The notes below the pieces were generated by a model. The model was not told the origin of the DNA and did not search any database. It saw only the letters and a list, made by a program, of their open reading frames with translations. The translations under genes and the position numbers were made by a program. This document shows positions 19,582 to 48,264 of a stretch of 64,000 nt of DNA, one piece after another. Positions within the stretch are counted from its first letter, which is position 1, and each line of letters begins with the position of its first letter. The stretch comes from Escherichia phage Ptacy1479, in the sequence record PQ863256.1; one strand, written 5' to 3'.

Positions 19582-20364
19582 ATGGCAATTAGAATGGGTA
19601 TAGAAGAACTAGACCCGATGGTTCAACAGGCTTCAAAGAAGTATGGTATACCAGCTGCTTTGATTCATGCTGTAATTCAAAGGGAGTCTAGTGGTCGTCC
19701 TAAGGTGGCTTCCGGAACTGGTCCTGTTGGTTTGATGCAGATCAGTAAAGGATTAGCCAAAGATTATGGTTACAAGCTAGAAGATAGGCTTGACCCAGCC
19801 AAGAATATCGATATGGGTGTTCGTTACATCAGAGATAACCTGAAAGCTTTTAATGGTGATGTTAGGAAGGCAATGGTTGGCTACTCAGAGGGAACTGGTG
19901 GTGCTAAGCAGATGTTCGCTGGTAAGAAAGGATTTACCCCTCAGGCTCTTGACTCAATGAACAACAAACACTTTCTTCCTTTCTATGGTGATGCAGCTTC
20001 TCAGATTGCTAACCCTATTGGGGCTTTACAAGCTGTTCAACCAGTTAATCAGTTTAATCCTGACTTGTTAGACAGAGAGAAGGCTGCACAAGCTCCAACT
20101 CAGGCAGAGATTGCTGCTTCTAAGACAGGTGCTTTAGGAGGTAATCCTGTAGAGTTCTACTCTGATGAAGTGCAGGAAGGAGAAGATCAGAAGCCTCGAC
20201 AGAACTTTGGTAATGCAGTATTAGGGGTAGCTGCTATGCTTGCTGGTAAACCTCCTACTTCTCAAACAGTTCAGAGGGCAAGTGCACCACATGCAGCAGG
20301 TTCTCAGTACAGTCCACAAACACAAGCAGTGCTCAGACGTTTGGCTAGCATTGGTGTAAAGTAA
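19582..20364 (+). CDS. virion-associated lytic transglycosylase (SLT domain)
   Basis: RESSGRP...GLMQI SLT motif. Confidence 0.75.
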   Translation: MAIRMGIEELDPMVQQASKKYGIPAALIHAVIQRESSGRPKVASGTGPVGLMQISKGLAKDYGYKLEDRLDPAKNIDMGVRYIRDNLKAFNGDVRKAMVGYSEGTGGAKQMFAGKKGFTPQALDSMNNKHFLPFYGDAASQIANPIGALQAVQPVNQFNPDLLDREKAAQAPTQAEIAASKTGALGGNPVEFYSDEVQEGEDQKPRQNFGNAVLGVAAMLAGKPPTSQTVQRASAPHAAGSQYSPQTQAVLRRLASIGVK

Positions 20365-20383
20365 TAATCTTTAAGGAGGACTT

Positions 20384-21436
20384 ATGTCTTTATTTGGAAA
20401 ATCAGCTTCTAGCAAAACCACAGTGGCTCCTTCCTCTCAGGTTGATGCCCTGCTGAAGCAGATTGTTGCTAATGCTCAGAATATGCAGAACAACGATCCG
20501 GGATTCATTTCCCAACAGCTGGCTGGGTTTAATGGCAACCAACAGGGTGCTCTGAATAATTTGGCAGCTTCTACAACTCAGAAGCAACTAGCTGATATGT
20601 ACACGCCTCGTACTCAGCAAGGGTTGGACCAACTAAACTCTCTTGCCCAACAGTATCAGGATATCATAAACGGTGGCGGTATAACTGCTGATGGTGTTAA
20701 TAACTTTAATAAAGGGTTGAATAATTCAGCTCTTGCTCAAGCCACTAGTAAAGCAGCTTCCAACGTATCTCTCGGGAATGGCTCTGATTCAGGTTCTCTT
20801 CGTAGAGCTGCTGCTCAGGGTGCTGCTTTGAATGGTGCTAATACAAACCTAGCTCGAACTATCAATGGAAAGAATATGGGAATTAATGCCCTTCAACAAG
20901 ACCAAAACTTCCAGAGAGGGTTACTTGGTGCTCAGTCGGGGTTAGCTGGACAGAATCTTAATCTTGGTGCACAAGGTGTTCAGGAAACCCAACAAGCTAT
21001 CCAGAATCAACTCTTGGCTGGTAATTTACAACAGCGACAAGATCAAGCTCAAGCTGACATTAATTGGCAGAATGCTATTGGCTCTAGGCAGTATGGATGG
21101 AATCAGCTTAACAACCAGCTTAATGTATTAAACAGTGTAAGTCCAATGGCTGGATATACAATTAAGAATGCCGCTCCGGGTGTTAACACAGGACAGCAGA
21201 TTCTTGGTGCTGGTATTACTGGATTAGGTATTGCAGGTCGTATGGGCGCTTTCTCTCCTAACCAGCAGACTCAAAATGCTTGGAGTTCCTATAACAACTC
21301 AGGTGGGCAATCTGGAATGGCTGGTCCTATGATTGGAGGTTCTAATCTCTCTCAACAGAGAGGTCAGTCTAACTGGTTATCCACAGCAGGTAGTAATATC
21401 TTAGGTGGTGTCTTAGGGGCATTCGGAGCAAACTAA
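20384..21436 (+). CDS. Gln/Asn/Gly-rich internal virion protein, paralog 1
   Basis: 350 aa; N-terminus MSLFGKSASSKTT and NNLAAS motif shared with next gene. Confidence 0.55.
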   Translation: MSLFGKSASSKTTVAPSSQVDALLKQIVANAQNMQNNDPGFISQQLAGFNGNQQGALNNLAASTTQKQLADMYTPRTQQGLDQLNSLAQQYQDIINGGGITADGVNNFNKGLNNSALAQATSKAASNVSLGNGSDSGSLRRAAAQGAALNGANTNLARTINGKNMGINALQQDQNFQRGLLGAQSGLAGQNLNLGAQGVQETQQAIQNQLLAGNLQQRQDQAQADINWQNAIGSRQYGWNQLNNQLNVLNSVSPMAGYTIKNAAPGVNTGQQILGAGITGLGIAGRMGAFSPNQQTQNAWSSYNNSGGQSGMAGPMIGGSNLSQQRGQSNWLSTAGSNILGGVLGAFGAN

Positions 21437-21448
21437 AGGAGATTTGAT

Positions 21449-22417
21449 ATGGGACTTTTCGGAGGCGGGGGTAGTAAAACTACTTCCCAAATGATTCGCC
21501 CTGAATACATTCAACAGTATATTGACCAGCTTAACAAGCAGATTGGTAATACCAGTTCAGGGGATTATGTTTATCGAGATAATGTAGGGTTTAATAACAA
21601 CCAGACAGAGGCACTTAACAACTTAGCACAATCTGGTGCTCTAGGAACTCTCTCACAGCAGTACATGGATGCAGCAGGTCAAGGGTTAGGGTATCTAGAT
21701 AATGCTTATAAAGGCTATCAGAGCCTCTCTGGACAAGGTGGGATTACTGGAGAACAGATTGGTGCTCTCGCTGGTCAACTGTATGATGATGACGCTGTGC
21801 AAGCAGCTATAACAGCTAATAACGAGCAGGTTCAACAGAACTTGGCACGTAATGCTCTTCCTCAGTTAGCTCAACAGTTTGCTGGTCAACAAGGATCAGG
21901 TGCTCGTATGGCTAAGTCTTTTGCCCAAGGTGATGCTCTGAATCAGATGCAAGGGCAAGCAACAGATATTACCAACAGTGCCTATAACTCGGCTATTAGC
22001 CAAGCTGAAAGCATCCTCTCTGGTAATAGACAGAATCAGGCAGCTGCTCTCTCAGGTCTTTCTAATATTGGTTCTAACCTTTCTAACCTAGGTCAGCAGG
22101 GTGCTAATTTGTCTCAACAGCAAATGATGAATCAATGGAATGCAGGGTTGCAGCAACAACAGCAACAACAGAATGAATATGATAATGCCTACCAGAATGC
22201 TCAGAACGCAGCTAATTGGGGATGGCAGGATATCAACAACCAACTCGGTGCAGCAGGCGTACTTAACGGTGCTCTCGGACAAACCACAACTACTAAAACA
22301 TCTGGTGGCAAAGGTGGTTTCCTTGGTGGAGCTATGAGTGGTGCAGCAGCTGGCTCTTCCTTTGGGCCTTGGGGCGCATTAGCTGGGGGTGTAATCGGTG
22401 GGTTGGCTAGTACTTAA
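21449..22417 (+). CDS. Gln/Asn/Gly-rich internal virion protein, paralog 2
   Basis: 322 aa; N-terminus MGLFGGGGSKTT; Gly-rich hydrophobic C-terminus. Confidence 0.55.
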   Translation: MGLFGGGGSKTTSQMIRPEYIQQYIDQLNKQIGNTSSGDYVYRDNVGFNNNQTEALNNLAQSGALGTLSQQYMDAAGQGLGYLDNAYKGYQSLSGQGGITGEQIGALAGQLYDDDAVQAAITANNEQVQQNLARNALPQLAQQFAGQQGSGARMAKSFAQGDALNQMQGQATDITNSAYNSAISQAESILSGNRQNQAAALSGLSNIGSNLSNLGQQGANLSQQQMMNQWNAGLQQQQQQQNEYDNAYQNAQNAANWGWQDINNQLGAAGVLNGALGQTTTTKTSGGKGGFLGGAMSGAAAGSSFGPWGALAGGVIGGLAST

Positions 22418-33479: not shown

Positions 33480-33488
33480 TATACATTA
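33480..33488 (-). promoter_or_regulatory. TAATGTATA promoter-like element about 60 nt upstream of SSB-like gene
   Basis: exact 9-mer on - strand. Confidence 0.45.
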
Positions 33489-36317: not shown

Positions 36318-38162
36318 TTAGTGCGTATGCATCCAGTTGAGTCCAATCTGACAATCAGAGGCCAGAGGACATTCCATGTTCAAGTACTCACCCGCTTTCT
36401 TAACACAAAGCTCAGTGTGTTCTTTGAGTTTCTGTACATCATTACGATTCACTGAGAATTGGCCCTCATCATGCATATCAATTACCTTAGCACAACGAAC
36501 CCCATCCCTCTCAATCCACTTGTTTAGGAACATCATAGCATATTTCATAACAACAGCACCAGCACATTGCAGTAGAGTGTTAAGTGCTTTATGAACCATA
36601 ACCTTACCAGTGGCATCTCGTCTCATTGTAATCTTACGACCATCAACACCAATCAAGTATCCTTGAGCAGCTTTCTCTGTCATACGATCAATGAGGATTG
36701 CAATACATGGGTTCTCTGCCAAGAAACGTGCTCGCATCACTGAACCTTCTTCAGCCCCACCACCTACAATTGAACCAAGCTTAGCGTCGCCAGCACCGTA
36801 GTTGAATGCATAGATAAATGTTTTAGCGTTGTCACGAGTAGGAAGACCAGCAAGTTTCTGGTTATGGGAGTGGATATCACCTTCAAGGAGAATATCACGA
36901 TACATAATAGCAGAAGCTAAACCACGTTCTGCCAGAGCTTTCTTAGCCGGATTGTTCTCTTCAATTGCCTCAGCAAGCATATCTCTACACTCTTTAATGA
37001 GGTAGTGAGCGAGCATACGAAGTTCAAGTCCAGAACCATCATACCCTAAGAATACTTCTTTACCAGCGGGTATGTAATATTTGTAAGCACCTACAGGTTT
37101 GTCTTTCTTCCTCGGCTTACCTTTCTCATAAATTACGTTAGTACCTTTTCGTATATAACAACCATCAGGAACAACGTTAGTAATAACGAAAGGACGAGAA
37201 TGATCACTGTCTGAGTTATAGTCAGACTCAAACAAACTGCGACACTCGTGACCAAACAAACCACGGGAGGGAATATTAACCACGATACGATGTTTGAATC
37301 GAAAAGTTGGCGTAGCGCAGCTGTTAGCTTCTGCCGAAAGTTTACCATCTTCGCGTTCCTTTGCTATGAGTCCACTGATAAGACCTAGCCTGTGAGCCGC
37401 TACAACGCGTCTCTTAAGCAAACTTCCGACACTCCCTAGATCACCCCCTAGCCCCTCTTCAAGAGTCTCCTCGAGGTTTGTAGGAGCTGTAGGCCACTTA
37501 TTTGATGTGGCTAGTGCTTTCTTAATCTCATCAAACGTTACAGGATTACGGCGATTAGGGTTCAATCCCAAACCAAATACGTAAGCCTTCATATAGTTCT
37601 TAGTTTTAAACCTGAAATGCTTTTCTAAGAACTTCTTAATATCAGCGTCAACCATCTCGGCTGTCTGCTTTTGCTTAGCATTGCCTCTCATCCAAGCAGT
37701 ATACCATGCTTGGTATGTTCCATACTTTCGCATATCTTTCTTAATTTCGAAAGTATTCCAAGGTTTCTTAGATACGTTAAACTCTGGAGGAAGAAAGCCC
37801 TCATCCATAAGAGCCTCTTTAACTCGTGCATCTTTCGATGGGTCAAAGTCTACGTATTCGACACAGGTGAATGCTCCACCAATATCTTCTCTCTTCAGCC
37901 CAACCCTATCACAATAGGCTTGAGGCCACTTCTGTAAAGCTCCAGACTTCTTAAACGGCTTCATGTAAGTAGAGCCATCTAATCTCATCTTAGGTAAGAG
38001 AGGAATCAACTCTCTGTCAATATTAACAATAATCTCTTTAAGGAGGTGAACATACCACCGAGCATTTCTTCGGTTGAAACTCACTCCGTGCTTTGCTTGC
38101 TTAGAGATTATATCAGCGACAGTCATCTCTGTCAAAAATGGAAGAGCGTCCGGGTTGCTCAC
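36318..38162 (-). CDS. DNA polymerase, family A, polymerase domain only
   Basis: motif A DGSGLELRMLAHY, motif B RDNAKTFIYAFNYG, motif C VIDMHDEGQF; no exonuclease motifs in this ORF. Confidence 0.8.
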   Translation of the reverse strand: MSNPDALPFLTEMTVADIISKQAKHGVSFNRRNARWYVHLLKEIIVNIDRELIPLLPKMRLDGSTYMKPFKKSGALQKWPQAYCDRVGLKREDIGGAFTCVEYVDFDPSKDARVKEALMDEGFLPPEFNVSKKPWNTFEIKKDMRKYGTYQAWYTAWMRGNAKQKQTAEMVDADIKKFLEKHFRFKTKNYMKAYVFGLGLNPNRRNPVTFDEIKKALATSNKWPTAPTNLEETLEEGLGGDLGSVGSLLKRRVVAAHRLGLISGLIAKEREDGKLSAEANSCATPTFRFKHRIVVNIPSRGLFGHECRSLFESDYNSDSDHSRPFVITNVVPDGCYIRKGTNVIYEKGKPRKKDKPVGAYKYYIPAGKEVFLGYDGSGLELRMLAHYLIKECRDMLAEAIEENNPAKKALAERGLASAIMYRDILLEGDIHSHNQKLAGLPTRDNAKTFIYAFNYGAGDAKLGSIVGGGAEEGSVMRARFLAENPCIAILIDRMTEKAAQGYLIGVDGRKITMRRDATGKVMVHKALNTLLQCAGAVVMKYAMMFLNKWIERDGVRCAKVIDMHDEGQFSVNRNDVQKLKEHTELCVKKAGEYLNMECPLASDCQIGLNWMHTH

Positions 38163-38178
38163 TTTATACTCCTTTAAA

Positions 38179-38601
38179 TTATTGGTAAAGTAAATCTGTA
38201 AATGCTTGGTTATCTTCTACTACATTCAGCATGGTTGCTTCATCACTATAAGCCCTAACTGTCCCGTTGACAACTGTCCAAGGAGGGGGCGGAGGAGGTG
38301 TATGTGCAGCTCTGGCTTCACGAGGTTGTTCTCGTACTAGATGATCCACAACCCTCTGACCAGCAAGTTCCTCTCTTTCTCTAATAGATCTTTGGATGTA
38401 AGCCAGCTTCATACCCCAAGCTTCTTCAAACTCTTGAGGGTGCTTATCACTGATAACCACATACTGTCGCTCTGGGCGTCCTGCCCTAATATCTGACAAT
38501 AATTCATGGAACAAGTCAAGCTCATGTTCAGTGAGACTTTCTTCGATATCATCCCACTTGAGAACTAGGAAACGGTTTTGATATCTAGTTGGTAATGGCA
38601 T
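38179..38601 (-). CDS. hypothetical protein with poly-Pro tract
   Basis: 140 aa; PPPPPP segment. Confidence 0.45.
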   Translation of the reverse strand: MPLPTRYQNRFLVLKWDDIEESLTEHELDLFHELLSDIRAGRPERQYVVISDKHPQEFEEAWGMKLAYIQRSIREREELAGQRVVDHLVREQPREARAAHTPPPPPPWTVVNGTVRAYSDEATMLNVVEDNQAFTDLLYQ

Positions 38602-38604
38602 AAC

Positions 38605-38889
38605 TCAACCTTTTGGGAATGGCATTAAAGATTCCATAGCAGCTTTAATTTCGCTATTGATCCGTGAATCTCGATAAGAGATAAACTTACCTTTGCTGTC
38701 ACGTAGCATCACATGGGTTCTGGCTGTTTTGTGAGGGAGTAATGTGATACTGGTCGGGATAGCATCAACCCCCACAGAGTATTTGTCAATAGTCTTGCTT
38801 TCAGCCAACAGATAAGACCAAGTACGCGGTTTCTGCTCCGGGCGGTTGGGGTATGTATCTCGAATCTGTACCATAGCTAACATATTCAT
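38605..38889 (-). CDS. hypothetical small protein, tandem paralog A
   Basis: shares KTARTxVxLR...GKFISY...E.L.PFP.G with next gene. Confidence 0.5.
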   Translation of the reverse strand: MNMLAMVQIRDTYPNRPEQKPRTWSYLLAESKTIDKYSVGVDAIPTSITLLPHKTARTHVMLRDSKGKFISYRDSRINSEIKAAMESLMPFPKG

Positions 38890-38890
38890 A

Positions 38891-39145
38891 TTAAACTCCT
38901 TCAGGGAATGGGATGAGATTTTCTACTGCAACACGGAAAGATTTTTCTACGTTCTTATTCTTATAAGAGATGAATTTTCCATCAGCTCCGCGAAGGAGTA
39001 CATTAGTGCGAGCTGTTTTTGGGTTTTGTTGAATCATAGAACGAATGATGTGCTCTGAACCTCTGTGGTTATTGGTGAATTTCCAACTGGTGGTTTTACC
39101 GGTACGGGTTACATCAACGATATTTACGATTTTTACAATAGACAT
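38891..39145 (-). CDS. hypothetical small protein, tandem paralog B
   Basis: paralog of 38605..38889. Confidence 0.5.
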   Translation of the reverse strand: MSIVKIVNIVDVTRTGKTTSWKFTNNHRGSEHIIRSMIQQNPKTARTNVLLRGADGKFISYKNKNVEKSFRVAVENLIPFPEGV

Positions 39146-39214
39146 ATTTATTACCTAAGAAGTTTATTTTGGTTTATATAAAAGAAAAGGCCACCTGATT
39201 AGGCAGCCTTTGTT

Positions 39215-39508
39215 CTAGAGACGAAGCCAAGTTTGATAGTCAGCTTCAGTGTAATGGTTGTTCCGAGAGTTGTTTTTCATTTCCTTGAGAGTAGCTCTCA
39301 GGTCGATGTTATGCTCTCTCCTTGTTCTATTCGGGTCTGTATCTTCTAATAGATGGGAGTGATCACTACAAGAGTAGTGCTTATAGTGGTCCCTGTACCC
39401 CCTATTTGTAGAATACTTGGTCATTAAAGTTGCAACTCTTTTTACACCCTCTGCTTTACAGAATTTACAGTAAGTGTGAATTGTACATCTTTTTGTTTCT
39501 GCTGACAC
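39215..39508 (-). CDS. Cys/His-rich small protein (putative zinc-binding)
   Basis: 97 aa; CTIHTYCKFCK...HYKHYSCSDHSH. Confidence 0.45.
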   Translation of the reverse strand: MSAETKRCTIHTYCKFCKAEGVKRVATLMTKYSTNRGYRDHYKHYSCSDHSHLLEDTDPNRTRREHNIDLRATLKEMKNNSRNNHYTEADYQTWLRL

Positions 39509-39518
39509 TATAACCTCT

Positions 39519-39833
39519 TTATGAGCTTAAAGCTCCTTTGCGTGCTCCAGCTGCTTTTCCAGCTCGATCACCACTTTTGCCGCCGTTTGAACGGTTTGAG
39601 CTGACTGATTCAACACGTAAGTTGCTTGACGCATTAGAACCTCCAGACTTGACAGCTCGTTTGTGTCCAACATCTTTACCTCTGACAGCAGCTTTTCCAT
39701 CGCGCTTTTCAACGATGCGACGTGCACGGTGGCGCTGAGCATCTCCGCTCTTGCTCCCAACGCCTGTCTCACCACGGGCAATTGCGGTACGTCTTTCTTG
39801 TGCATAATCTCTCTTTCCTACATGATCTGCCAT
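39519..39833 (-). CDS. small highly basic Gly/Arg/Lys/Ser-rich protein (DNA-binding candidate)
   Basis: AAGGAG 7 nt upstream of ATG; promoter-like motif upstream; codon third positions fit genome better than the overlapping frame. Confidence 0.5.
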   Translation of the reverse strand: MADHVGKRDYAQERRTAIARGETGVGSKSGDAQRHRARRIVEKRDGKAAVRGKDVGHKRAVKSGGSNASSNLRVESVSSNRSNGGKSGDRAGKAAGARKGALSS

Positions 39834-39869
39834 TTAAAACTCCTTAATATATCAGTGTACACTAAGGAG

Positions 39870-39878
39870 TATACATTA
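39870..39878 (-). promoter_or_regulatory. TAATGTATA promoter-like element, 36 nt upstream of ATG 39833
   Basis: exact 9-mer on - strand. Confidence 0.5.
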
Positions 39879-39887
39879 TGAATGATG

Positions 39888-40076
39888 TTAAAACTCTGCT
39901 AAGTACTTAATATCAGAGGCATATACCTCATCAAAAGAAATAGGCTCTCCGTTGTAGAGGAGTTCTATTTTCAGTATACCAGAGCATTTGGTGTCTTTAG
40001 AGTCAACTCTGATAGAGAGTTTATCAACTATATGAGCTTTAATCTCTTCTATCATTAACTCTTGAGTATTACTCAC
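39888..40076 (-). CDS. hypothetical small protein (start uncertain: GTG 40076 or ATG 40055)
   Basis: GGGAGG 5 nt upstream of GTG; track start 40136 overlaps upstream gene by 68 nt. Confidence 0.3.
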   Translation of the reverse strand: MSNTQELMIEEIKAHIVDKLSIRVDSKDTKCSGILKIELLYNGEPISFDEVYASDIKYLAEF

Positions 40077-40254
40077 TCCACCCTCCCGGTGGTACAAAAT
40101 CATCAGGAACGTCAATGATAGTAGGTTCTCCATCATTCATGCAGGTGTCTTCATTGAACTCTTCACACTCAAAACATGCTCGTTCGATATTTTTGTAGAA
40201 GTCGATGGTTGCTGAACCATCACCACAATCTCGGATAACTAAAGCGACTTTCAT
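40069..40254 (-). CDS. hypothetical small acidic protein
   Basis: 61 aa track ORF coupled to PhoH stop. Confidence 0.4.
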   Translation of the reverse strand: MKVALVIRDCGDGSATIDFYKNIERACFECEEFNEDTCMNDGEPTIIDVPDDFVPPGGWSE

Positions 40255-40994
40255 TTATCTTGTTCCTTTTCCATAGCTTTAACAATGGCTTTACAGAAAC
40301 CAGAACGAACAATGTCATCTGACTCACCGTCTACAATCTCAGCAAACTCATACAGATCATGTTCATCAATAAAGTTAGTAGCCCAAGTCAGGCCACTCTC
40401 ACGACCACGCATATCATGCTGGTTTGTATCACCCATGCAAAACAGCTGAGAGGTTTCTCCCAATCGAGTCATGATGGAGAAGGCTTCATCCTTAGTTGTG
40501 TTCTGGAACTCATCTACGATAACAATAGCATCATTGAAAGAACGACCACGGAGGTATTCCAGAGGTACGAACTCGATGTTGCTATTACCAAGTTGGCATT
40601 CATAGAACCCCTTACCATATCGCTGAGTAATAACATCAATGATAGGCATCAGGTAAGGTTCAAACTTCTCACGCATTCCTCCCGGAAGTAACCCAAGAGA
40701 ATTGCCCATGCCAACCGAAGGACGACTCAGAATGATCTTCTGAATCTTACCACTCTTCAGTGCATCGATAACCGTGGAAGTGATTACAAAGGTCTTACCA
40801 CAGCCCGCAGGAGCGTCTGTGAACACAACTTGTTTAGTCTTAATAGCATTGAGTAGCTCAGACTGAAACTGGTTCTGAGGGACTACAGGCTTTGCTAAAA
40901 CCACCTCTTCATACTCTCGCTTACCTTTACGAGTAACAAGTGCTTCCCGACGAAGGTCTTTCCGTGATTCTTTCCGTGATTGACGACGACTCAT
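40251..40994 (-). CDS. phoH: PhoH-like ATPase
   Basis: Walker A APAGCGKTF; MGDTNQHD motif. Confidence 0.8.
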   Translation of the reverse strand: MSRRQSRKESRKDLRREALVTRKGKREYEEVVLAKPVVPQNQFQSELLNAIKTKQVVFTDAPAGCGKTFVITSTVIDALKSGKIQKIILSRPSVGMGNSLGLLPGGMREKFEPYLMPIIDVITQRYGKGFYECQLGNSNIEFVPLEYLRGRSFNDAIVIVDEFQNTTKDEAFSIMTRLGETSQLFCMGDTNQHDMRGRESGLTWATNFIDEHDLYEFAEIVDGESDDIVRSGFCKAIVKAMEKEQDK

Positions 40995-41188
40995 TTACGC
41001 TCTCCAATTTCTTCGTAATGACACTCAGTAGTTAAGCAGTCTTTACAGATTGCTGTATAAACCCTGACGTTAGTAAATCGTTTGTTCTTCCCTTTGGTTG
41101 GAGAGCCTTTGGCAAGCTCTCTGATAACCTTGTTACTTAAATGAAGGTTTGTTCCTTCACATCTAGAGCACTTCACCACAATGTCCAT
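40991..41188 (-). CDS. small zinc-ribbon protein
   Basis: CSRCEG...CKDCLTTEC. Confidence 0.4.
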   Translation of the reverse strand: MDIVVKCSRCEGTNLHLSNKVIRELAKGSPTKGKNKRFTNVRVYTAICKDCLTTECHYEEIGERK

Positions 41189-41373
41189 TCAGTAAGAGAC
41201 CACAGGGAGTCACCTATGTGGGCATTGTCATTCCTGATGAGGTCTTTGATTTTATCAACATCAGTTAAGTGAGTCACATTCAAAATATCCTCAACATCCG
41301 GGGTATATTTAAATATGGCAATAATACTGTTGTGATCTTCAGCATATCTTTCTAGAACATAAACTACACTCAT
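41173..41373 (-). CDS. hypothetical small protein
   Basis: 66 aa track ORF. Confidence 0.4.
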   Translation of the reverse strand: MSVVYVLERYAEDHNSIIAIFKYTPDVEDILNVTHLTDVDKIKDLIRNDNAHIGDSLWSLTEWTLW

Positions 41374-41576
41374 AAGGCATCAACCTCTCTCAGATACCAC
41401 CATTTAAACTCAACACCTTTACGACCACCACCATTCATAACCCAACGCATCATCTCATCAGGTATTCCAAAAGGTTTAAGTTTCGCATAGTTAGGTTTTT
41501 CTAAGAACACAGCTTCAAAATACTCACCATCTTGATCATACTGGTTGATTGCTCTTGTTAGTACCCATACTTTCAT
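41370..41576 (-). CDS. hypothetical small protein (start revised to Met38)
   Basis: purine-rich AAAGAGAAGAG upstream of ATG 41576. Confidence 0.35.
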   Translation of the reverse strand: MKVWVLTRAINQYDQDGEYFEAVFLEKPNYAKLKPFGIPDEMMRWVMNGGGRKGVEFKWWYLREVDAL

Positions 41577-41892
41577 TACTCTTCTCTTTATGAAGTCTAT
41601 AAACAGCTGTCGCCATGCAAGCAACAGCTTCATTATGCGGAAGGTGCATCCCTGTAGAACCATCCCAATCTTTGAACTCATTGTCAAAGACTCCGGTAGG
41701 TTCTGGATACAGAGCTTGCAGCTCCACTAGATCATTAGCAACTTGTTGCCATTTATCATCAGACCAGATAGGGTCATCCAACCAGTAATACAAATAGGAA
41801 TGGATGATCAATTGCCTTCTATGCCGATTGATTACTTCAGCGGGACTTATTTCACTTCCATTTGAAGTCCTAAATGTATTACCGTCGATCAT
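41536..41892 (-). CDS. hypothetical protein
   Basis: 118 aa track ORF. Confidence 0.45.
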   Translation of the reverse strand: MIDGNTFRTSNGSEISPAEVINRHRRQLIIHSYLYYWLDDPIWSDDKWQQVANDLVELQALYPEPTGVFDNEFKDWDGSTGMHLPHNEAVACMATAVYRLHKEKSNESMGTNKSNQPV

Positions 41893-42095
41893 TATGAAAA
41901 TTTCCGTTCTGTTAAAAAGTATATAACTTCACTATCTGGAGACCGAACTTTCTCTCCATTTACTAATTTCTTAGCATCTTCATATGAAGCACAATCCAAA
42001 GCAGGGTTATCAGGTGTTGGCTTCCCTAGGAAATATTTCCAAGTCCAACGCTCTCCGTCATCATCTTGACAGTCAAGAGTCCACAATGTTTTCAT
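41892..42095 (-). CDS. hypothetical small protein
   Basis: 67 aa; ATGA coupling at both ends. Confidence 0.4.
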   Translation of the reverse strand: MKTLWTLDCQDDDGERWTWKYFLGKPTPDNPALDCASYEDAKKLVNGEKVRSPDSEVIYFLTERKFS

Positions 42096-42277
42096 TTAAC
42101 AACCTTAAATTTGAATGTTGTTGGGTGATAATAGTGCAACCTGTTGATAGTATGCTTTGTTTCAAGGTATGTCCTACAGGAGTGGCACATAACATGAGAC
42201 AAACCAGTCACAGGATTGGGCTTAAAATTGATGATAAGCTTCTCTTTCTTACAGAAGCTACAGACTTTCTTTTCCAT
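42092..42277 (-). CDS. small Cys-rich (CxxC...CxxC) protein (start revised to Met24)
   Basis: GGAGAAAAG upstream of ATG 42277. Confidence 0.4.
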   Translation of the reverse strand: MEKKVCSFCKKEKLIINFKPNPVTGLSHVMCHSCRTYLETKHTINRLHYYHPTTFKFKVVK

Positions 42278-42491
42278 CTTTTCTCCAGTGGTCAACGAAT
42301 TGCTGAAACACTTTATGGTCGAAGGTGAAACCACGAGCAATCCCACACTCTACGAAAGTAGAAGGCATATAGTCTACATCACCTTTAGATGTATGACCAT
42401 AAACTTGAATAAGCTTTTTAATCTTACCCTTCTCTCTTCGAGGAAGCATCCTAAATGCCTCCTGAATATCTGTAATATGTTTGACTTTCAT
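42258..42491 (-). CDS. hypothetical small protein
   Basis: AGGAAT upstream of ATG. Confidence 0.45.
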   Translation of the reverse strand: MKVKHITDIQEAFRMLPRREKGKIKKLIQVYGHTSKGDVDYMPSTFVECGIARGFTFDHKVFQQFVDHWRKDGKESL

Positions 42492-42503
42492 CAGAAATTC
42501 CTG

Positions 42504-42635
42504 CTAATCCTCTGGATTATGAGAACAGCAATACTCACATACTCCGCAACATGGACAAATTTCTACACTTGGGTCATATGCATCATCCACTGTCATTCCG
42601 CACTTGGTACAGAACACGTCGTCATCTTCTTCCAA
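42504..42635 (-). CDS. small zinc-ribbon protein (43 aa from TTG; not in track)
   Basis: 8 Cys (CTKCG...CPCCGVCEYCC); GGAG 9 nt upstream of TTG; fills gap after ThyX-like gene. Confidence 0.3.
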   Translation of the reverse strand: MEEDDDVFCTKCGMTVDDAYDPSVEICPCCGVCEYCCSHNPED

Positions 42636-42637
42636 TA

Positions 42638-43294
42638 TTAAATCTCCAATGTTTTCTTCAGAGCTGCCCACGAGATTGGGTAGATCTTAGTCATCTCTTC
42701 GTCTACAGATTTAGCAAACACTCGAACTTCATATTGAGCGTGAGAGGAGAGTCGCTGACGACACAACTCAAACCAGCCATACAAAGAACCGGTCCACACC
42801 CACTCAGTGATCATCCCCTGAGGAAGAACAAATCGAGCTTGCTCTGGTGCAATAAATTCAATCAACTTGTCATATGCTGCTAGAGAAGCTTCATATGCAT
42901 CATTAATCAGCATTAATGCTTCAGCTCGTTCTCCGTCGATGAGTTGAATCCCTGAACCTGCATGGAGGTCCGAAGGTCTCGCAAAAATCTCTTTAGGGAT
43001 GAAGACTTCAACTGCTCCATCTTTATACCGCCGGGACATTTCGTTCCACGAGAATCCAACCTGATGCTTGCCCAACTGTCTCGCAATTGCGATAGGTGCT
43101 TTGCATCGGAAACTGACTTGCGGGTGTCGGAATGGGGTAACATGCTTCTCTCTTGCGAGGAAGTTGATGAGACGTTCATCACGTTCATTTAAATCACCTT
43201 CACGGGTTACGCCAAAGGAAACTCGAGCTGCGTTTACTACGCTACGATCACTTCCCATAGCTTCGATTAATGTTGCTTGTAATTGTTCATTCAT
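42638..43294 (-). CDS. thyX: flavin-dependent thymidylate synthase ThyX-like, with KHQ in place of the RHR signature
   Basis: ThyX-like along its length (ARVSF, KAPIAIARQ, SHAQYEVR) but RHRX7S position reads KHQX8S. Confidence 0.65.
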   Translation of the reverse strand: MNEQLQATLIEAMGSDRSVVNAARVSFGVTREGDLNERDERLINFLAREKHVTPFRHPQVSFRCKAPIAIARQLGKHQVGFSWNEMSRRYKDGAVEVFIPKEIFARPSDLHAGSGIQLIDGERAEALMLINDAYEASLAAYDKLIEFIAPEQARFVLPQGMITEWVWTGSLYGWFELCRQRLSSHAQYEVRVFAKSVDEEMTKIYPISWAALKKTLEI

Positions 43295-43309
43295 CCGTGA
43301 ATTTCCTTA

Positions 43310-43519
43310 TTAATATTCCTTGATTGGGGATACCACAAAACCACCAAGAGGTGAGGTAAAAGATTTATGTAAGCTTATTTTGCTATAAATCTTTGGAGCC
43401 ATCTTAAGAGCCTTCTTAAAACGACGAGCATCTTTACGAGTAGCAAAATGCTCTGTAACAGGTATAGAATGGTCTTGGTAGATATAATACATCACCGTCC
43501 AGTATTTTCCCATAATCAA
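43310..43519 (-). CDS. small basic protein, member of 4-copy paralog family
   Basis: shares W.V...F.TRK.AR.FKK...H pattern with 44996/45205/45414. Confidence 0.45.
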   Translation of the reverse strand: MIMGKYWTVMYYIYQDHSIPVTEHFATRKDARRFKKALKMAPKIYSKISLHKSFTSPLGGFVVSPIKEY

Positions 43520-43788
43520 ACACCTAGTGCAGTAGTTAAAAATGCTTTCAGGTTTGCCTCAGTCTGCATACCAGAGAGGCTGTAGTGTGCGCCACTGTTA
43601 CGGTCAGGTACGACGAAAGCGGGTATGCTTCGTACACCATATTTAACAGCTTGTTCACGACCATCTCCTTCAAGGATATTGATCTCTTCCACTTCTACAT
43701 CAAACTCCCTAACAACCCTCTCAAAGGTGGGAGCCATTGCTTTACATGGAGCACACTGATCACTATAAAACTTAATTACTTTAGACAT
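43516..43788 (-). CDS. thioredoxin
   Basis: 90 aa; CAPC active-site CxxC at residues 12-15, thioredoxin-like size. Confidence 0.7.
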   Translation of the reverse strand: MSKVIKFYSDQCAPCKAMAPTFERVVREFDVEVEEINILEGDGREQAVKYGVRSIPAFVVPDRNSGAHYSLSGMQTEANLKAFLTTALGV

Positions 43789-43796
43789 GTAAATCC

Positions 43797-43976
43797 TTAT
43801 GCAGTCAGGAGGTGAAGCAGGAACGGGATAACAACAGCTACGATAACCATGATGGTTGATGCTGTTTGAATCTCACCTTTCTTATCAGGGGTTTCTTCAA
43901 TAAGCTTACCAGAAGCCCAATAAATACCACCACCAATAAAGATAGCCCAAATACCCCATACGATTGCTGATAACAT
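43797..43976 (-). CDS. small two-TM membrane protein (59 aa; not in track)
   Basis: MLSAIVWGIWAIFIGGGIYW and IMVIAVVIPFLLHLL helices; TAAGGA upstream of ATG. Confidence 0.4.
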   Translation of the reverse strand: MLSAIVWGIWAIFIGGGIYWASGKLIEETPDKKGEIQTASTIMVIVAVVIPFLLHLLTA

Positions 43977-44037
43977 ATATCTATATCCTTATAAATAAGT
44001 TCGCCCCACCTCGGGTTAGGAGACAGGGCGGAGGTTT

Positions 44038-44601
44038 TTAGTAAGACACGTCGCCACTTGAATGGGACATGTTGCTCTTGACGAAGTAGCAATACTTGCC
44101 AAGACCTTCATTAATTTCTTGAAGCATACTCTGATCGACAGGGTAGGATGCTAAATCGCCATCAAACTCATCCATCTTCTCAATAATACACATCAAGGTC
44201 ATGCACATATCAGAGAGCATACCGTCCATGTCTAGATCAGCATTACCCTCTGAAAACCAAGCATGGGAGAGGTAGTTAGCCGCTGTAGCATCCACCTTAA
44301 CACAGTGATATCGCATACGTTCAGCAATACGATCTCCTACTTGTCGTGCGTAATCTTCCATCTCATCAAACATACCATGAACACCCTGAAATCCTGCACC
44401 AGAGACGTTCCAGTGGTAGTTTTTAGCTTTGATATGCAAGAGTTCCATGTTAGCTTGTAAGCAGCTCAGGATGTGTTCTAGGCTGTTTCCACTAATCATA
44501 CCCTGCATTGTTTCAAGGCGAGAGATTGAAAGCTCAGACCGGTCTAACACACTATAGCTGTCACGACCAATCTCAGGTAAATCAAAAACATTCTTATGCA
44601 T
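44038..44601 (-). CDS. dps: Dps-family ferritin-like protein (start revised to Met17)
   Basis: KAKNYHWNVSGAGFQGVHGMFDE...DRIAER with ferroxidase-position His, His, Asp, Glu conserved. Confidence 0.7.
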   Translation of the reverse strand: MHKNVFDLPEIGRDSYSVLDRSELSISRLETMQGMISGNSLEHILSCLQANMELLHIKAKNYHWNVSGAGFQGVHGMFDEMEDYARQVGDRIAERMRYHCVKVDATAANYLSHAWFSEGNADLDMDGMLSDMCMTLMCIIEKMDEFDGDLASYPVDQSMLQEINEGLGKYCYFVKSNMSHSSGDVSY

Positions 44602-44923
44602 TTGGGTTTTCTCCATCAAGTTCAACTGAATTAGCAACATTACGTGCAATATTATCCATTACCTGCTGGGTAATTACGATGCAGTTCTGCGGGTCTACTG
44701 ACTTAGAACGCCCCATTTCAGGGTCATACACCTTAACTCGTTTAGCAGTTGAACCTGTAACCTGAAGAACCTTCAATAGATATCCCTGATTACCAATAGA
44801 CCAAGCAACAACATCACGATTCTTGATAAAGCGACCAAGCATATCACGATGATAAAACTGTTGCATCACCTTGGATTTTGTAATCTCTTCAGTGGGCGGG
44901 GCCACTTTACTCAAATCTAACAT
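44594..44923 (-). CDS. hypothetical protein
   Basis: AATGTATA-containing element about 39 nt upstream; 109 aa. Confidence 0.5.
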   Translation of the reverse strand: MLDLSKVAPPTEEITKSKVMQQFYHRDMLGRFIKNRDVVAWSIGNQGYLLKVLQVTGSTAKRVKVYDPEMGRSKSVDPQNCIVITQQVMDNIARNVANSVELDGENPNA

Positions 44924-44962
44924 AACTCTCTCCTGTAAAATACAAATTCTTATTGTACTCTA

Positions 44963-44971
44963 TATACATTT
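44963..44971 (-). promoter_or_regulatory. AAATGTATA variant of the promoter-like element
   Basis: 8/9 match to TAATGTATA, similar spacing to ATG 44923. Confidence 0.35.
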
Positions 44972-44995
44972 GAGAGTTACCATATCTACTACCAA

Positions 44996-45205
44996 TCAGT
45001 AGTAAATTACTTTAGACATAAAAGAACCCGAGCTAGGGTCTTCGTACCAGCGATGAATGTCAGCACTTTTAACAGTTCCTATTAGAGCTTTCACATTCTT
45101 TTTAGCGACACGAGCCTCTTTGCGAGTGTTAAACAGTTTGATATTATCTTTACCTAAGTGTTGTTTCTGTTCCCAAACAACACGAACAGCCCACATCTTT
45201 TTCAT
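44996..45205 (-). CDS. small basic protein, tandem paralog 1
   Basis: 69 aa; TRKEARVAKK motif. Confidence 0.5.
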   Translation of the reverse strand: MKKMWAVRVVWEQKQHLGKDNIKLFNTRKEARVAKKNVKALIGTVKSADIHRWYEDPSSGSFMSKVIYY

Positions 45206-45414
45206 TAGTAATGTACCTTTCCGCTGATATAAATACGACCAGAGGAATACTCCTTGGCCTTATGGATACTAATGCTCTTAGTTAAGTCCATATTGAACAT
45301 AGACTTTTTAAAATCTCGAGCTTGTTGACGGGTGGGCAGTGCAGTCATAGTCATACCACCTGATGCCCACTTAATCTTCGCTAACCAGAACTGTCTCATG
45401 GTGATTGGTCTCAT
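45205..45414 (-). CDS. small basic protein, tandem paralog 2
   Basis: 69 aa; TRQQARDFKK motif. Confidence 0.5.
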   Translation of the reverse strand: MRPITMRQFWLAKIKWASGGMTMTALPTRQQARDFKKSMFNMDLTKSISIHKAKEYSSGRIYISGKVHY

Positions 45415-45611
45415 TAATAATAAACCTTACTATTTGCCATAAAAGCACCTTCGCTATTCATGAAAGCTTTACCAATACTAACCTTGTTAAGTCTAAAAGT
45501 AGACTTGTATTGATTTTTGACCCTACGTGCGTGCTCTCGAGTATTAACAAAATCTACAGCTACCAACTCTCCAGACGTGTTATCATGTACACGAACAATC
45601 CACTTTTTCAT
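45414..45611 (-). CDS. small basic protein, tandem paralog 3
   Basis: 65 aa; TREHARRVKN motif. Confidence 0.5.
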   Translation of the reverse strand: MKKWIVRVHDNTSGELVAVDFVNTREHARRVKNQYKSTFRLNKVSIGKAFMNSEGAFMANSKVYY

Positions 45612-45835
45612 TTTACTAAACCCTTCATATAATCATAAAGATCATTAGAGGCTTTACCCCATTCAAGGTGCTTCTTATCCATATAACTCTTACAGGCTTC
45701 TTTACTGCTCTCAACGCATATATCAAATTGATGACATGCTCGACCAAAAGTTATAGCTTTTAACTGAACTTCGGTAGTTAAACCTTTAAGCTCTTGAAAC
45801 TCTTCTTCAGTCATTTTACACACCTTTGGATGCAA
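45608..45835 (-). CDS. hypothetical small protein
   Basis: 75 aa track ORF. Confidence 0.4.
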   Translation of the reverse strand: MHPKVCKMTEEEFQELKGLTTEVQLKAITFGRACHQFDICVESSKEACKSYMDKKHLEWGKASNDLYDYMKGLVK

Positions 45836-46349
45836 CTACACCTTCAGAGTTATTATAACGACCCTTCACTGCATAGGAATCATCACCAGCGTGAGAGTGT
45901 TCAAACATAACCATTTGACCAACACGCATCCCAGCACGAACTCGTAAGCTGTGGTGCTTGGTTACGTTGTGGAATTCAAATGTCAGCTTACTACTATTAA
46001 ATCCTGCATCAGCCCAACCGGCATGGAGGTGGTTCAGGCCACAACGAGCCATAGATGAACGCAGAACAAATAGACTTGAGATATTATCTGGAAGATTAAA
46101 CTCCTCCATAGAGTGAGCCAAGAAGAACTGACCCGGAGTGATAACCAAACCCTCTTCAGGAATCTTTACTTCCTTCCACTGAAGATTCTCTTTCGCATCA
46201 ATATCAACGATGCCATCAGCCTGTTCTTCAACAAGGATAGTATCACCAATACGGATATCCACACTAGCAGCGTTAACATACTTATGCTCCGCATCCAGAT
46301 AGCCATTGTCAATTACATCATGCAGTTCAATACTTCCTAGTAAACTCAT
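45816..46349 (-). CDS. dcd: dCTP deaminase (dUTPase superfamily)
   Basis: HAGWADAGFNSSKLTFEFHN...GMRVGQMVMF pattern. Confidence 0.75.
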   Translation of the reverse strand: MSLLGSIELHDVIDNGYLDAEHKYVNAASVDIRIGDTILVEEQADGIVDIDAKENLQWKEVKIPEEGLVITPGQFFLAHSMEEFNLPDNISSLFVLRSSMARCGLNHLHAGWADAGFNSSKLTFEFHNVTKHHSLRVRAGMRVGQMVMFEHSHAGDDSYAVKGRYNNSEGVVASKGV

Positions 46350-46361
46350 TCTTTTTCCTTA

Positions 46362-47708
46362 TTAGCGAATGTTTTGTGAATTTATTAAGTGGTCCAGTTC
46401 TCCACCAACCTGAGGCTCTAATACTTCAGGATTGTTGGCAACAAACCGATCAGCGAGACTGCGGCTGACAGTCTCAGCAAGTTCGTCATGAGAAGGAGTA
46501 TCAAGATCGGAGAGACTACCTACCACATCTTGAGCCACGCCTTCATCAGTCCAGATAACACGAGAAGGGGCGTTGATATCACCAACAGCGAAACCTTGAC
46601 CAGAGAACTGGTGACGGCTAACAGTAAAACCATTTGATCGACCACGAGAAGGACTAGATATCCATCTCTCCATAGAATCCCTTGTAATACCAAGAGCTTC
46701 TTCAAAAGATGTTCTACGAGTAGGGCTTTCTCTTCGTGACTCTTGTGCTCGACGCATTGCAGGGGCTACAAACACCCCTTCAATTGCATTGTGTCGGTTA
46801 GGTTCTTCCCGACCAAGCAGATCACCACCCGTGTTGGTTGTTAAGTTTGTCAACCCTTCAGACCAATATGCTCTTATCTGACTAGAGCCATGAACACTTG
46901 ACATTAACTGAATCTCTTCATAAGGGATTCCAAAGAATCGACTCATGTCACGATTAACACAATACTGAGCACTTGTTGTGTCCTCAATAAGAGCAACCTG
47001 ACCTCGTTCGTTGACCAGATGACTAACTGGTTGAGGTGTGGGAAGGTATCGAGTTTGGGCCATGTATTGATGTGCAGCTGCTGGAGAGGAAAATCTCAAC
47101 ACTTGCGAGTTAGGCCACTTCTTGTGAACATACCTGATTTCACGACTAGAAACAACCACTGGACAAGGGGCGGTCATAGCCAAATATCCATGAGAAGTCA
47201 TGAATAAGTTGTCAAGAGTCATCGCACCACGACACATCATAGGAAAATTATCCAATACCTCTTCAATAGAAGTAGGATAATTAAACATGAATTGGATACG
47301 AACCCCATTCCACTGAAACTCAATAATATCAGTGAATGTTAATTGAGAACTCCCAGCATAGGATTCGTTTGTAGCTTCAGCAAGAAGGGATGCATATTCA
47401 ACATCTTGTGACTCTAGCCATTCCTTCACATTACTTTCAATCTCTCTTCCAAGAGCTTGCCAACGATCAGTTGGGACGAAAGTATTTTGAGTTCTTGGTG
47501 TTTGTCCTCTGACAATAAAGATATCAATGTCATGTGGAGCTGTGTTATTAAGCACAGCATCACGAACAGCCCCACCAGTAATGATGGGACAGATACCGTC
47601 TGGAACTAAATTGTTGTTAATCAACTGTTCAATGAAGTGACGACCAACAGTGATATCAGGTTGTTGAGCAACCTTATCTTCAATTTGGTTAATCGGGATA
47701 ACAATCAT
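46362..47708 (-). CDS. nucleotidyltransferase with CCA-adding / poly(A) polymerase-type head domain (start revised to Met20)
   Basis: IITGGAVRDAVL...HDIDIFI matches GGxVRD...DxD head motif; C-terminal half Ser/Arg-rich, unassigned. Confidence 0.55.
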   Translation of the reverse strand: MIVIPINQIEDKVAQQPDITVGRHFIEQLINNNLVPDGICPIITGGAVRDAVLNNTAPHDIDIFIVRGQTPRTQNTFVPTDRWQALGREIESNVKEWLESQDVEYASLLAEATNESYAGSSQLTFTDIIEFQWNGVRIQFMFNYPTSIEEVLDNFPMMCRGAMTLDNLFMTSHGYLAMTAPCPVVVSSREIRYVHKKWPNSQVLRFSSPAAAHQYMAQTRYLPTPQPVSHLVNERGQVALIEDTTSAQYCVNRDMSRFFGIPYEEIQLMSSVHGSSQIRAYWSEGLTNLTTNTGGDLLGREEPNRHNAIEGVFVAPAMRRAQESRRESPTRRTSFEEALGITRDSMERWISSPSRGRSNGFTVSRHQFSGQGFAVGDINAPSRVIWTDEGVAQDVVGSLSDLDTPSHDELAETVSRSLADRFVANNPEVLEPQVGGELDHLINSQNIR

Positions 47709-47709
47709 T

Positions 47710-48264
47710 TTACATTTTCCAATATAATGAAGGTGGGTCGTAAGGGTCAAATCCCGTGAGTTCACACAAGAAAAGATAAACCTTAACAGTTAAGTTAACG
47801 TCCTGTTCACAATAAGTAAACATATCTTCAGTGAAAGCATCCCATGCTTCCTCTTGCTCACCGTAATCACCTTTAAGTTCCTCTAAGAACTCACCCCATT
47901 GCTTCAAACCATGACCTCTTGGGCCACGTCTAGGGTCGCCTTTCGGGTACTCAGGACTGTCACCAATACGGTCAGGTTTAAGATATCGACTAAGACATAA
48001 AGTGTCAAAGACGTTAAAATGATATTTAATCAAAGAAGGATACATCTTCTTCAGAGCAGGTAAGTCGAAGTCAATGATATTATGACCAACGAGCACATCA
48101 GCTTCTGTAAGTTTACGAATCCCATCTTCAATTTGGTGAGGCCGATAGCCCCACCTTTCACCAGATTCAACATCGAAGATATAAATACACCATACTCTAG
48201 TTATGTCATCGTACAGTGCATTACTCTCGATATCAAATGCAAACACTTTCTTTTTCTTTACCAC
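47710..48264 (-). CDS. 3'-5' exonuclease (DnaQ-like), stand-alone proofreading domain
   Basis: FDIES (Exo I), GHNIIDFD (Exo II), YCEQD (Exo III). Confidence 0.7.

Follow-up and report, generated by a model that had tools for sequence, protein, structure and literature searches.

The window analysed here is a stretch of 64,000 nucleotides from Escherichia phage Ptacy1479 (sequence record PQ863256.1), in which the replicative DNA polymerase is encoded in two pieces: a polymerase-only gene of the T7 type and a distant gene for a stand-alone 3'-5' exonuclease, with a gene for a short thioredoxin between them. The window is the genome of a Kuravirus (phiEco32-like, subfamily Gordonclarkvirinae), and in a tblastn search the 614-residue open reading frame (ORF) of the polymerase matched dozens of Kuravirus genomes, including that of phiEco32, at 99% identity. 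Compared with phiEco32 (NC_010324, Savalia et al. 2008), the window contains essentially the same genes in the same order, its polymerase is 99% identical to gp53, and the differences, among them a few small ORFs in the stretch that separates the exonuclease gene from the polymerase gene, are at the strain level only. Throughout the region from the polymerase to the exonuclease gene every gene lies on the minus strand, so that transcription runs from high to low coordinates. The main features, with the polymerase motifs and the thumb element placed by alignment with T7, are the following.

36318..38162, minus strand: polymerase-only subunit of a T7-type family A DNA polymerase, 614 amino acids, homologue of phiEco32 gp53
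36459..36479, minus strand: polymerase motif C, DMHDEGQ, with catalytic D565
36789..36836, minus strand: polymerase motif B, RDNAKTFIYAFNYGAG, with K447 and with Y451 aligned to T7 Y526
37017..37046, minus strand: polymerase motif A, GYDGSGLELR, with catalytic D375
37824..37994, minus strand: thumb element equivalent to the T7 thioredoxin-binding domain, holding a basic KPFKKSG loop and the segment GGAFTCVEYVDFDPSK
43516..43788, minus strand: short phage thioredoxin, 90 amino acids, active site CAPC (PF00085, E=1.3e-12, 48 bits)
47710..48264, minus strand: stand-alone DEDDy 3'-5' exonuclease subunit, 184 amino acids, homologue of phiEco32 gp74
47800..47814, minus strand: exonuclease motif YCEQD
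48064..48087, minus strand: exonuclease motif GHNIIDFD
48223..48237, minus strand: exonuclease motif FDIES

Pfam searches, which the preliminary description of this DNA had called for, located DNA_pol_A, DNA_pol_A_exo1 and Thioredoxin each in the expected protein. The polymerase gene starts at a GTG codon with an AAGGAG Shine-Dalgarno sequence 7 nt upstream, and PF00476 (DNA_pol_A) covers only residues 361-611 of its product (E=3.9e-23), bearing out the earlier reading that this gene has Pol A motifs A, B and C but lacks Exo motifs. Residues D375, K447 and D565/E566 are invariant or nearly so in 88 homologues. Within motif B, FIY451AFNYG aligns with T7 FIYGFLYG, and the invariant Y451 is taken by us to be the equivalent of T7 Y526. 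The best sequence match of the polymerase in the PDB is T7 gp5 (phmmer, E=2e-33), with Pol I far weaker (2e-6); the AlphaFold2 model, built on an alignment of homologues, has a predicted local distance difference test score (pLDDT) of 92.0, and its top Foldseek matches are T7 DNA polymerase (E=3.6e-25). The C-terminal His is also kept, the protein ending in ...WMHTH where T7 ends in ...WAICH. A Tyr at the Y526 position of motif B is a hallmark of cluster 5 (PMC10201439), and the motifs, this Tyr, the closest structure and the C-terminal His all place the polymerase in the T7-like family A (CDD cd08643; cluster 5, Czernecki et al. 2023).

The polymerase aligns to T7 only from about residue 206 on, and a 3'-5' exonuclease domain is therefore not part of the same polypeptide. 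The preliminary description had allowed that exonuclease motifs might still emerge within the 614 residues on proper alignment, and a hidden or degenerate exonuclease domain was accordingly considered and rejected: no remnant was found in residues 1-360 by hhalign against a profile of 53 exonuclease homologues (probability 0.14%), and three insertions (approximately residues 136-240, 323-370 and 389-422) account for the residues it has in excess of the T7 polymerase domain. PF00476 is likewise the only domain in polymerase homologues of 488-618 amino acids, and the 34-residue insertion at 389-422 is also present in Vibrio phages.

Interruptions of the polymerase gene were observed in relatives. 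In the close relatives 1-6af, 1-6bf and FH3, a 607-bp insertion lies inside motif C (MH|DEGQ), at positions 1993-2599 of locus L010 in Escherichia phage 1-6af; the window counterpart of the insertion point lies between 36471 and 36470 (codons H564|D565), where the gene is uninterrupted. The insertion carries a 131-residue HNH-type ORF and a sub-threshold Rfam match to group I introns (RF00028, 26 bits, E=6.5e-4). In another class of relatives the polymerase ORFs, 437-460 amino acids long, extend over no more than the initial 72-74% of the query, which implies another interruption near residue ~450, in motif B (P0068-P0071, P0134, P0136-P0137, P0140, P0147, P0149, P0153 from Aeromonas phage BUCT695, P0155-P0156 and P0159).

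The GTG start codon of the exonuclease gene overlaps the stop codon of the primase-helicase gene, and its own stop is followed 1 nt later by the ATG of the gene downstream. The product matches PF01612 (DNA_pol_A_exo1; E=1.3e-8, 35.3 bits against a cut-off of 23.6), and the residues of Exo I (DxE), Exo II (Nx3-4D) and Exo III (Yx3D), namely D11, E13, N62, D67, Y151 and D155, are invariant in 53 aligned homologues, in keeping with the three exonuclease motifs recognised earlier in this 184-residue protein. This invariance argues for a working DEDDy nuclease under selection. The 54 exonuclease homologues, with identities between 98% and 35%, all stand alone as proteins of 105-212 amino acids. Against all PDB sequences, the only matches at E<=1 are to T7 DNA polymerase, residues 3-178 (E=6e-11). 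The AlphaFold2 model (pLDDT 93.8) has an RNase H-like exonuclease fold that by Foldseek is nearer to a polymerase proofreading domain than to an RNase: the best 27 matches are all T7 DNA polymerase chains (E from 2e-11 to 5e-9), the next match appears at 6e-6, and later ones are polymerase exonuclease domains and TREX. Membership in an RNase family, which the preliminary description had named as a possible objection, was considered on account of a Pfam match to RNase_H_2 (E=1e-4) and rejected; the DNA polymerase exonuclease family scores higher, and both sequence and fold matches lead to T7 gp5.

Placed end to end, the exonuclease and polymerase are collinear with T7 gp5 residues 1-704, and they meet near T7 residue 205, which lies in the exonuclease-polymerase linker. 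In five unsplit relatives, 597-618 amino acids long, the first ~155-168 residues correspond to the exonuclease (34-39% identity) and everything from about residue 165 onward to the polymerase (40-44% identity). Relatives that cover first the exonuclease and then the polymerase provide a direct Rosetta-stone argument for a common origin, and the collinearity and the unsplit relatives together indicate that the two separate genes derive from one T7-like PolA. A neighbour-joining tree built on the polymerase domain places cyanophage S-RIP2 outside a group formed by the unsplit relatives and the phiEco32/LUZ24 split clade, with poorly supported deep nodes. This topology hints at two independent fissions, but it was not relied on, given the poor support of the deep nodes and bootstrap values that are probably affected by rooting.

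The likeness to T7 extends to gene placement. T7 gp5 is the best sequence and fold match for both halves, sharing motifs A, B and C, the Tyr at the Y526 position, the C-terminal His and the DEDDy residues, and in both phages the polymerase or exonuclease is placed just after a gp4-type primase-helicase gene. Whereas the T7 enzyme (PDB 1T7P, 2AJQ, 6N7W) is one polypeptide, the window encodes it in two genes 9.5 kb apart; the window polymerase has the three insertions and a thioredoxin-binding element about 25 amino acids shorter; and thioredoxin, supplied by the host in T7, is phage-encoded and short at its N-terminus in the window. The S-SBP1-like cyanopodophage PolA (PMC10201439) offers a second comparison: it is also split at the interdomain linker, and its thioredoxin-binding region is also shortened, by 32 amino acids, but its exonuclease and polymerase genes are adjacent and overlapping and arose from a +1 frameshift, whereas those of the window are separated by 9,547 bp and 20-27 genes.

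The distance of 9,547 bp was measured from the exonuclease stop to the polymerase start, and the gap holds 23 non-overlapping minus-strand ORFs by a greedy count (at least 40 amino acids), up to ~27 by hand, and 20 annotated genes in phiEco32, in good agreement with the roughly 9.5 kb and "some 25 genes" first described. In every related locus checked that spans both genes, the order primase-helicase, exonuclease, variable block, polymerase is kept, while the length of the gap differs by lineage as follows.

LUZ24-like Pseudomonas phage: ~2.1 kb
Metagenomic contig L009: 3.2 kb
Salmonella phage 7-11: ~6.7 kb
Window (phiEco32-like): 9.5 kb
Vibrio phage vB_VpaP_SJSY21: ~20 kb

The split between exonuclease and polymerase is old, since this gene order is kept across several phages. 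A PhoH gene lies inside the gap in four of the five lineages and was not seen in L009. In the LUZ24/PaP3/tf group (Bruynoghevirus, where the genes are called "DNA polymerase part I / part II"), the same split occurs with the order helicase, exonuclease, PhoH and, further on, polymerase, a parallel with phiEco32 stated in PMC3517423; the LUZ24-like proteins are 40% (polymerase) and 33% (exonuclease) identical to those of the window. The group differs in its gap of only ~2 kb, in a shorter polymerase (~545 amino acids) that lacks 28 extra residues at 389-422, and in that no homologue of the window thioredoxin was detected in it. In Vibrio phage SJSY21, genes for a class Ia ribonucleotide reductase were observed inside the gap.

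Both halves are thus homologous specifically to T7 gp5 and collinear with it, with a defined break point, intact conserved catalytic residues and a conserved order. We consider it very probable that this replication module derives from a T7 gp5-type polymerase broken at the exonuclease-polymerase linker, with proofreading carried out by a separate subunit. An ancestral T7 gp5-type family A polymerase gene would have been broken in the linker between its exonuclease and polymerase domains; the exonuclease half would have stayed directly behind the gp4-type primase-helicase gene, and the polymerase half now lies 9.5 kb downstream, nucleotide-metabolism and accessory genes having accumulated between them (a nucleotidyltransferase, a dCTP deaminase, a ferritin/Dps-like protein, thioredoxin, ThyX, a ligase Ia domain, PhoH and many small ORFs). 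The two polypeptides would then re-associate non-covalently into a T7-like two-lobed enzyme, as suggested by domain homology and by the published AlphaFold2 complex of the related split pair of cyanophage S-SBP1, which superposes on an unsplit polymerase (PMC10201439), and the primer end would shuttle between the polymerase and exonuclease sites. Proofreading in trans is a reasonable proposal because the exonuclease residues are invariant in the 53 homologues, the gene order is kept, and the model of the related pair reassembles.

Two observations weigh against this interpretation. The three lineage-specific insertions of the polymerase may bear on the predicted docking surface of the exonuclease. 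In addition, the exonuclease and polymerase genes appear to lie in different transcription units, with promoter-like motifs between them, and hence the stoichiometry and timing of the two products need not match. The consensus of the gp36-dependent middle/late promoters of phiEco32 is TAATGTATA, with promoter positions at genes 58 and 68 (PMC8948821). Matches in the window were found as follows.

39870..39878, minus strand: exact match to TAATGTATA, upstream of the block ending with the polymerase gene
44963..44971, minus strand: one-mismatch match AAATGTATA, upstream of the thioredoxin block and downstream of the exonuclease gene; weak when taken alone
33480..33488, minus strand: further match to TAATGTATA
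8727, 24107 and 33552, plus strand: further matches to TAATGTATA

As the number of TAATGTATA matches in the window is that expected by chance (18 matches versus 18.7 expected), only those that agree with published promoter positions were used, on the basis of position and literature; these sit at expected middle/late promoter sites, upstream of the genes homologous to phiEco32 genes 40, 58 and 68.

The apparent separation by promoter-like motifs, together with the 2-20 kb that lie between the two genes in different lineages, would also fit an exonuclease that acts alone, in recombination, end processing or host DNA breakdown, beside a polymerase that replicates without proofreading. This explanation strikes us as quite improbable. 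The exonuclease is specifically the N-terminal domain of T7 gp5 and not a generic DnaQ/TREX protein, with a gap of five orders of magnitude in Foldseek E-value, and in every locus checked that spans both genes it is found with an exonuclease-less T7-type polymerase, directly after the primase-helicase. Family A polymerases have moreover been reported to need the exonuclease domain for stability (PMC10201439), which also counts against a stand-alone exonuclease.

The genes that surround the two halves and fill the space between them are the following.

48258..50048, minus strand: T7 gp4-type primase-helicase, immediately upstream of the exonuclease gene (PF03796 and a weak Toprim_2 match)
46362..47708, minus strand: nucleotidyltransferase, immediately downstream of the exonuclease gene (PF01743, poly(A) polymerase head, E=5e-4, below the Pfam cut-off; annotation of phiEco32 gp73)
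45816..46349, minus strand: dCTP deaminase (PF22769, E=3.6e-34)
44038..44649, minus strand: ferritin/Dps-like protein (PF00210)
42638..43294, minus strand: ThyX flavin-dependent thymidylate synthase (PF02511, E=1e-43)
41536..41892, minus strand: stand-alone NAD+-binding Ia domain of NAD-dependent DNA ligase, 118 amino acids (PF22745, E=2.5e-35)
40251..40994, minus strand: PhoH-like ATPase (PF02562, E=4e-56), with PhoH also in the gap of the LUZ24-like, 7-11 and Vibrio phages

The space between the halves is a sink for nucleotide-metabolism and accessory genes. The nucleotidyltransferase likely starts at the ATG at 47708, one base after the exonuclease stop, and the mechanical ORF at 46362..47765 overlaps the exonuclease gene only through an upstream GTG. 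The counterpart of the ligase Ia-domain protein is labelled "DNA ligase" in the phiEco32 record (NC_010324).

The thioredoxin at 43516..43788, the third gene singled out in the preliminary description, has the CxxC active site, cis-Pro loop and PF00085 match of its family. It aligns to E. coli TrxA residues 24-105 (E=2.7e-7), without the N-terminal ~20 residues, reads SDQCAPC where E. coli thioredoxin has AEWCGPC, and lacks both Trp residues of the WCGPC region. Residues C12, P14, C15, the cis-Pro P56 (SIP56) and G73 show no variation among 13 homologues, the most distant of which have 39% identity. Homologues occur in 126 phage records, almost all of enterobacterial C3-morphotype phages; no LUZ24-like (Pseudomonas) or Vibrio phage is among these records, and a scan of the LUZ24-like, Vibrio and cyanophage loci with the phage thioredoxin and E. 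coli TrxA found none. The gene is part of a ferritin(Dps)-thioredoxin-ThyX cluster (42638..44649) that is also found in the relative L008 (751-2332), whose polymerase is 69% identical; in phage 7-11 the three genes also lie together, rearranged (19992-22283 of its locus).

T7 recruits E. coli thioredoxin as its processivity factor, and the phage thioredoxin might likewise be a dedicated processivity subunit that binds the thumb of the split polymerase, giving a three-gene replicase of exonuclease, polymerase and thioredoxin. We regard this as rather unlikely. In its favour, the polymerase is of the T7 type and has an insertion at the thioredoxin-binding site, in which the segment matching T7 R318-F334 is kept ("REDIGGAFTCVEYVDF" versus "REYVAGAPYTPVEHVVF"); all enterobacterial C3-morphotype phages examined share the thioredoxin; the invariant CxPC, cis-Pro and G73 positions line the surface that thioredoxin presents to its partners; and ribonucleotide reductase, the usual client of thioredoxin, was not found in the window. 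The thumb element is, however, about 25 amino acids shorter than in T7 (94 versus 117 residues across T7 positions 236-352; about two thirds of the T7 thioredoxin-binding element are retained), with the first part of the T7 loop absent and the basic KPFKKSG stretch retained. Its length is constant (74-81 amino acids for polymerase residues 57-135 in 88 homologues, including LUZ24-like, Vibrio and unsplit relatives), and its conserved positions are also the same across the LUZ24-like, Vibrio-phage and unsplit relatives. As length and conserved positions are the same in relatives without a phage thioredoxin, the element is not a feature tied to owning a thioredoxin gene. A polymerase feature that co-occurs with thioredoxin was sought in the thumb element and in the 389-422 insertion and was not found; the thumb segment of phage 7-11 looks closer to that of L009, which has no thioredoxin gene within 10 kb, than to that of the window, and thus no thioredoxin-specific signature emerges. 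The loss of the N-terminal residues and of both Trp residues also speaks against such a subunit, as do the linkage of the gene to ferritin/Dps and ThyX, not to the polymerase, and the abundant TrxA already supplied by the host. AlphaFold2, furthermore, did not dock host thioredoxins on a related split polymerase (PMC10201439).

A processivity role for the phage thioredoxin is therefore possible, but the comparative data give it no specific support. This is where the preliminary description held only in part: its polymerase-only gene, distant T7-type exonuclease gene and intervening thioredoxin all stand, whereas its suggestion of a thioredoxin that confers processivity does not find specific backing. 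The broader idea that phiEco32-like phages have internalised the T7 host factor, with a short phage thioredoxin on the retained thioredoxin-binding element and a replicase of polymerase, exonuclease and thioredoxin independent of host trxA, appears doubtful to us; in the literature, nothing was found on the dependence of Kuravirus on host trxA. If thioredoxin did prove to be a processivity subunit, a phage copy would have taken the place of a host factor, and the enzyme could give biotechnology a compact processive polymerase that does not depend on the host.

The simplest interpretation makes the thioredoxin a redox-active aid to the nucleotide-metabolism genes beside it. A redox enzyme for nucleotide supply or redox balance, for instance one that reduces the host ribonucleotide reductase, with no role at the polymerase, has in our estimation about an even chance of being correct. 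It would be consistent with the invariance of the redox CxPC motif and cis-Pro across the thioredoxin homologues and with the conserved ferritin(Dps)-thioredoxin-ThyX cluster, which sits among dCTP deaminase, ThyX and PhoH genes. On the other side, the window offers no ribonucleotide reductase as a client, to our knowledge ThyX itself does not use thioredoxin, and gene neighbourhood in phages is weak evidence for the role of a thioredoxin. Phage thioredoxins and glutaredoxins usually serve to reduce ribonucleotide reductase (PMC7881722).

The C-terminus of the primase-helicase (48258..48350, minus strand) was observed to form an acidic tail with a terminal Trp, reminiscent of the acidic tail, ending in Phe, with which T7 gp4 docks on its polymerase; the primase-helicase homologue of cyanophage S-RIP2 ends in ...DFDPTTDF. 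In T7 the loop and its basic residues are also a binding site for gp4 and gp2.5, through the acidic C-terminal tails of these proteins, and it may be speculated that the conserved thumb element serves helicase docking.

Further observations concern the other genes of the gap. Gordonclarkvirinae are unusually resistant to restriction-modification, and their dCTP deaminase and nucleotidyltransferase may make a DNA modification (PMC11990801); in the window the two genes (45816..47708, minus strand) come directly after the exonuclease gene, and the presence of ThyX in the same block argues against simple deoxyuridine-containing DNA. Four small paralogous ORFs of 65-69 amino acids, hypothetical in phiEco32, share a W-x-V start, a TR-x-x-AR-x-x-KK core and a C-terminal Y; three form a tandem array, and the fourth comes immediately after the thioredoxin gene. 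Two adjacent ORFs of 94 and 84 amino acids are also paralogous, with ...KTART.V.LR...GKFISY... and ...L.PFP.G. in common.

45414..45611, minus strand: small paralogous ORF
45205..45414, minus strand: small paralogous ORF
44996..45205, minus strand: small paralogous ORF
43310..43519, minus strand: small paralogous ORF, directly after the thioredoxin gene
38605..38889 and 38891..39145, minus strand: the two adjacent paralogous ORFs

The split polymerase of phiEco32-like phages is real, ordinary for the group and already known, having been annotated and discussed since 2008. The GenBank record of phiEco32 (NC_010324) describes gp53 as a DNA polymerase that "lacks 5'-3' and 3'-5' exonuclease domains", gp74 as a "DNA polymerase exonuclease subunit" with a 3'-5' exonuclease domain, and gp65 as "thiol-disulfide isomerase and thioredoxin". 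The split in LUZ24-like phages and phiEco32 was remarked on in 2012 (PMC3517423), and split T7-like polymerases were analysed by Czernecki et al. 2023 (PMC10201439). The proposal of thioredoxin as a processivity factor is likewise already in print: the Privateer paper of 2021 (PMC7881722) put it forward and noted that thioredoxin is kept in all C3 phages. With the split of the phiEco32-like and LUZ24-like polymerases already in database annotation and several papers, the present finding carries small weight as a discovery. It is of more interest as a natural example of a family A replicase that presumably works with its proofreading domain as a separate subunit, and whose exonuclease and polymerase genes have been able to drift 2 to 20 kb apart with their gene order retained.

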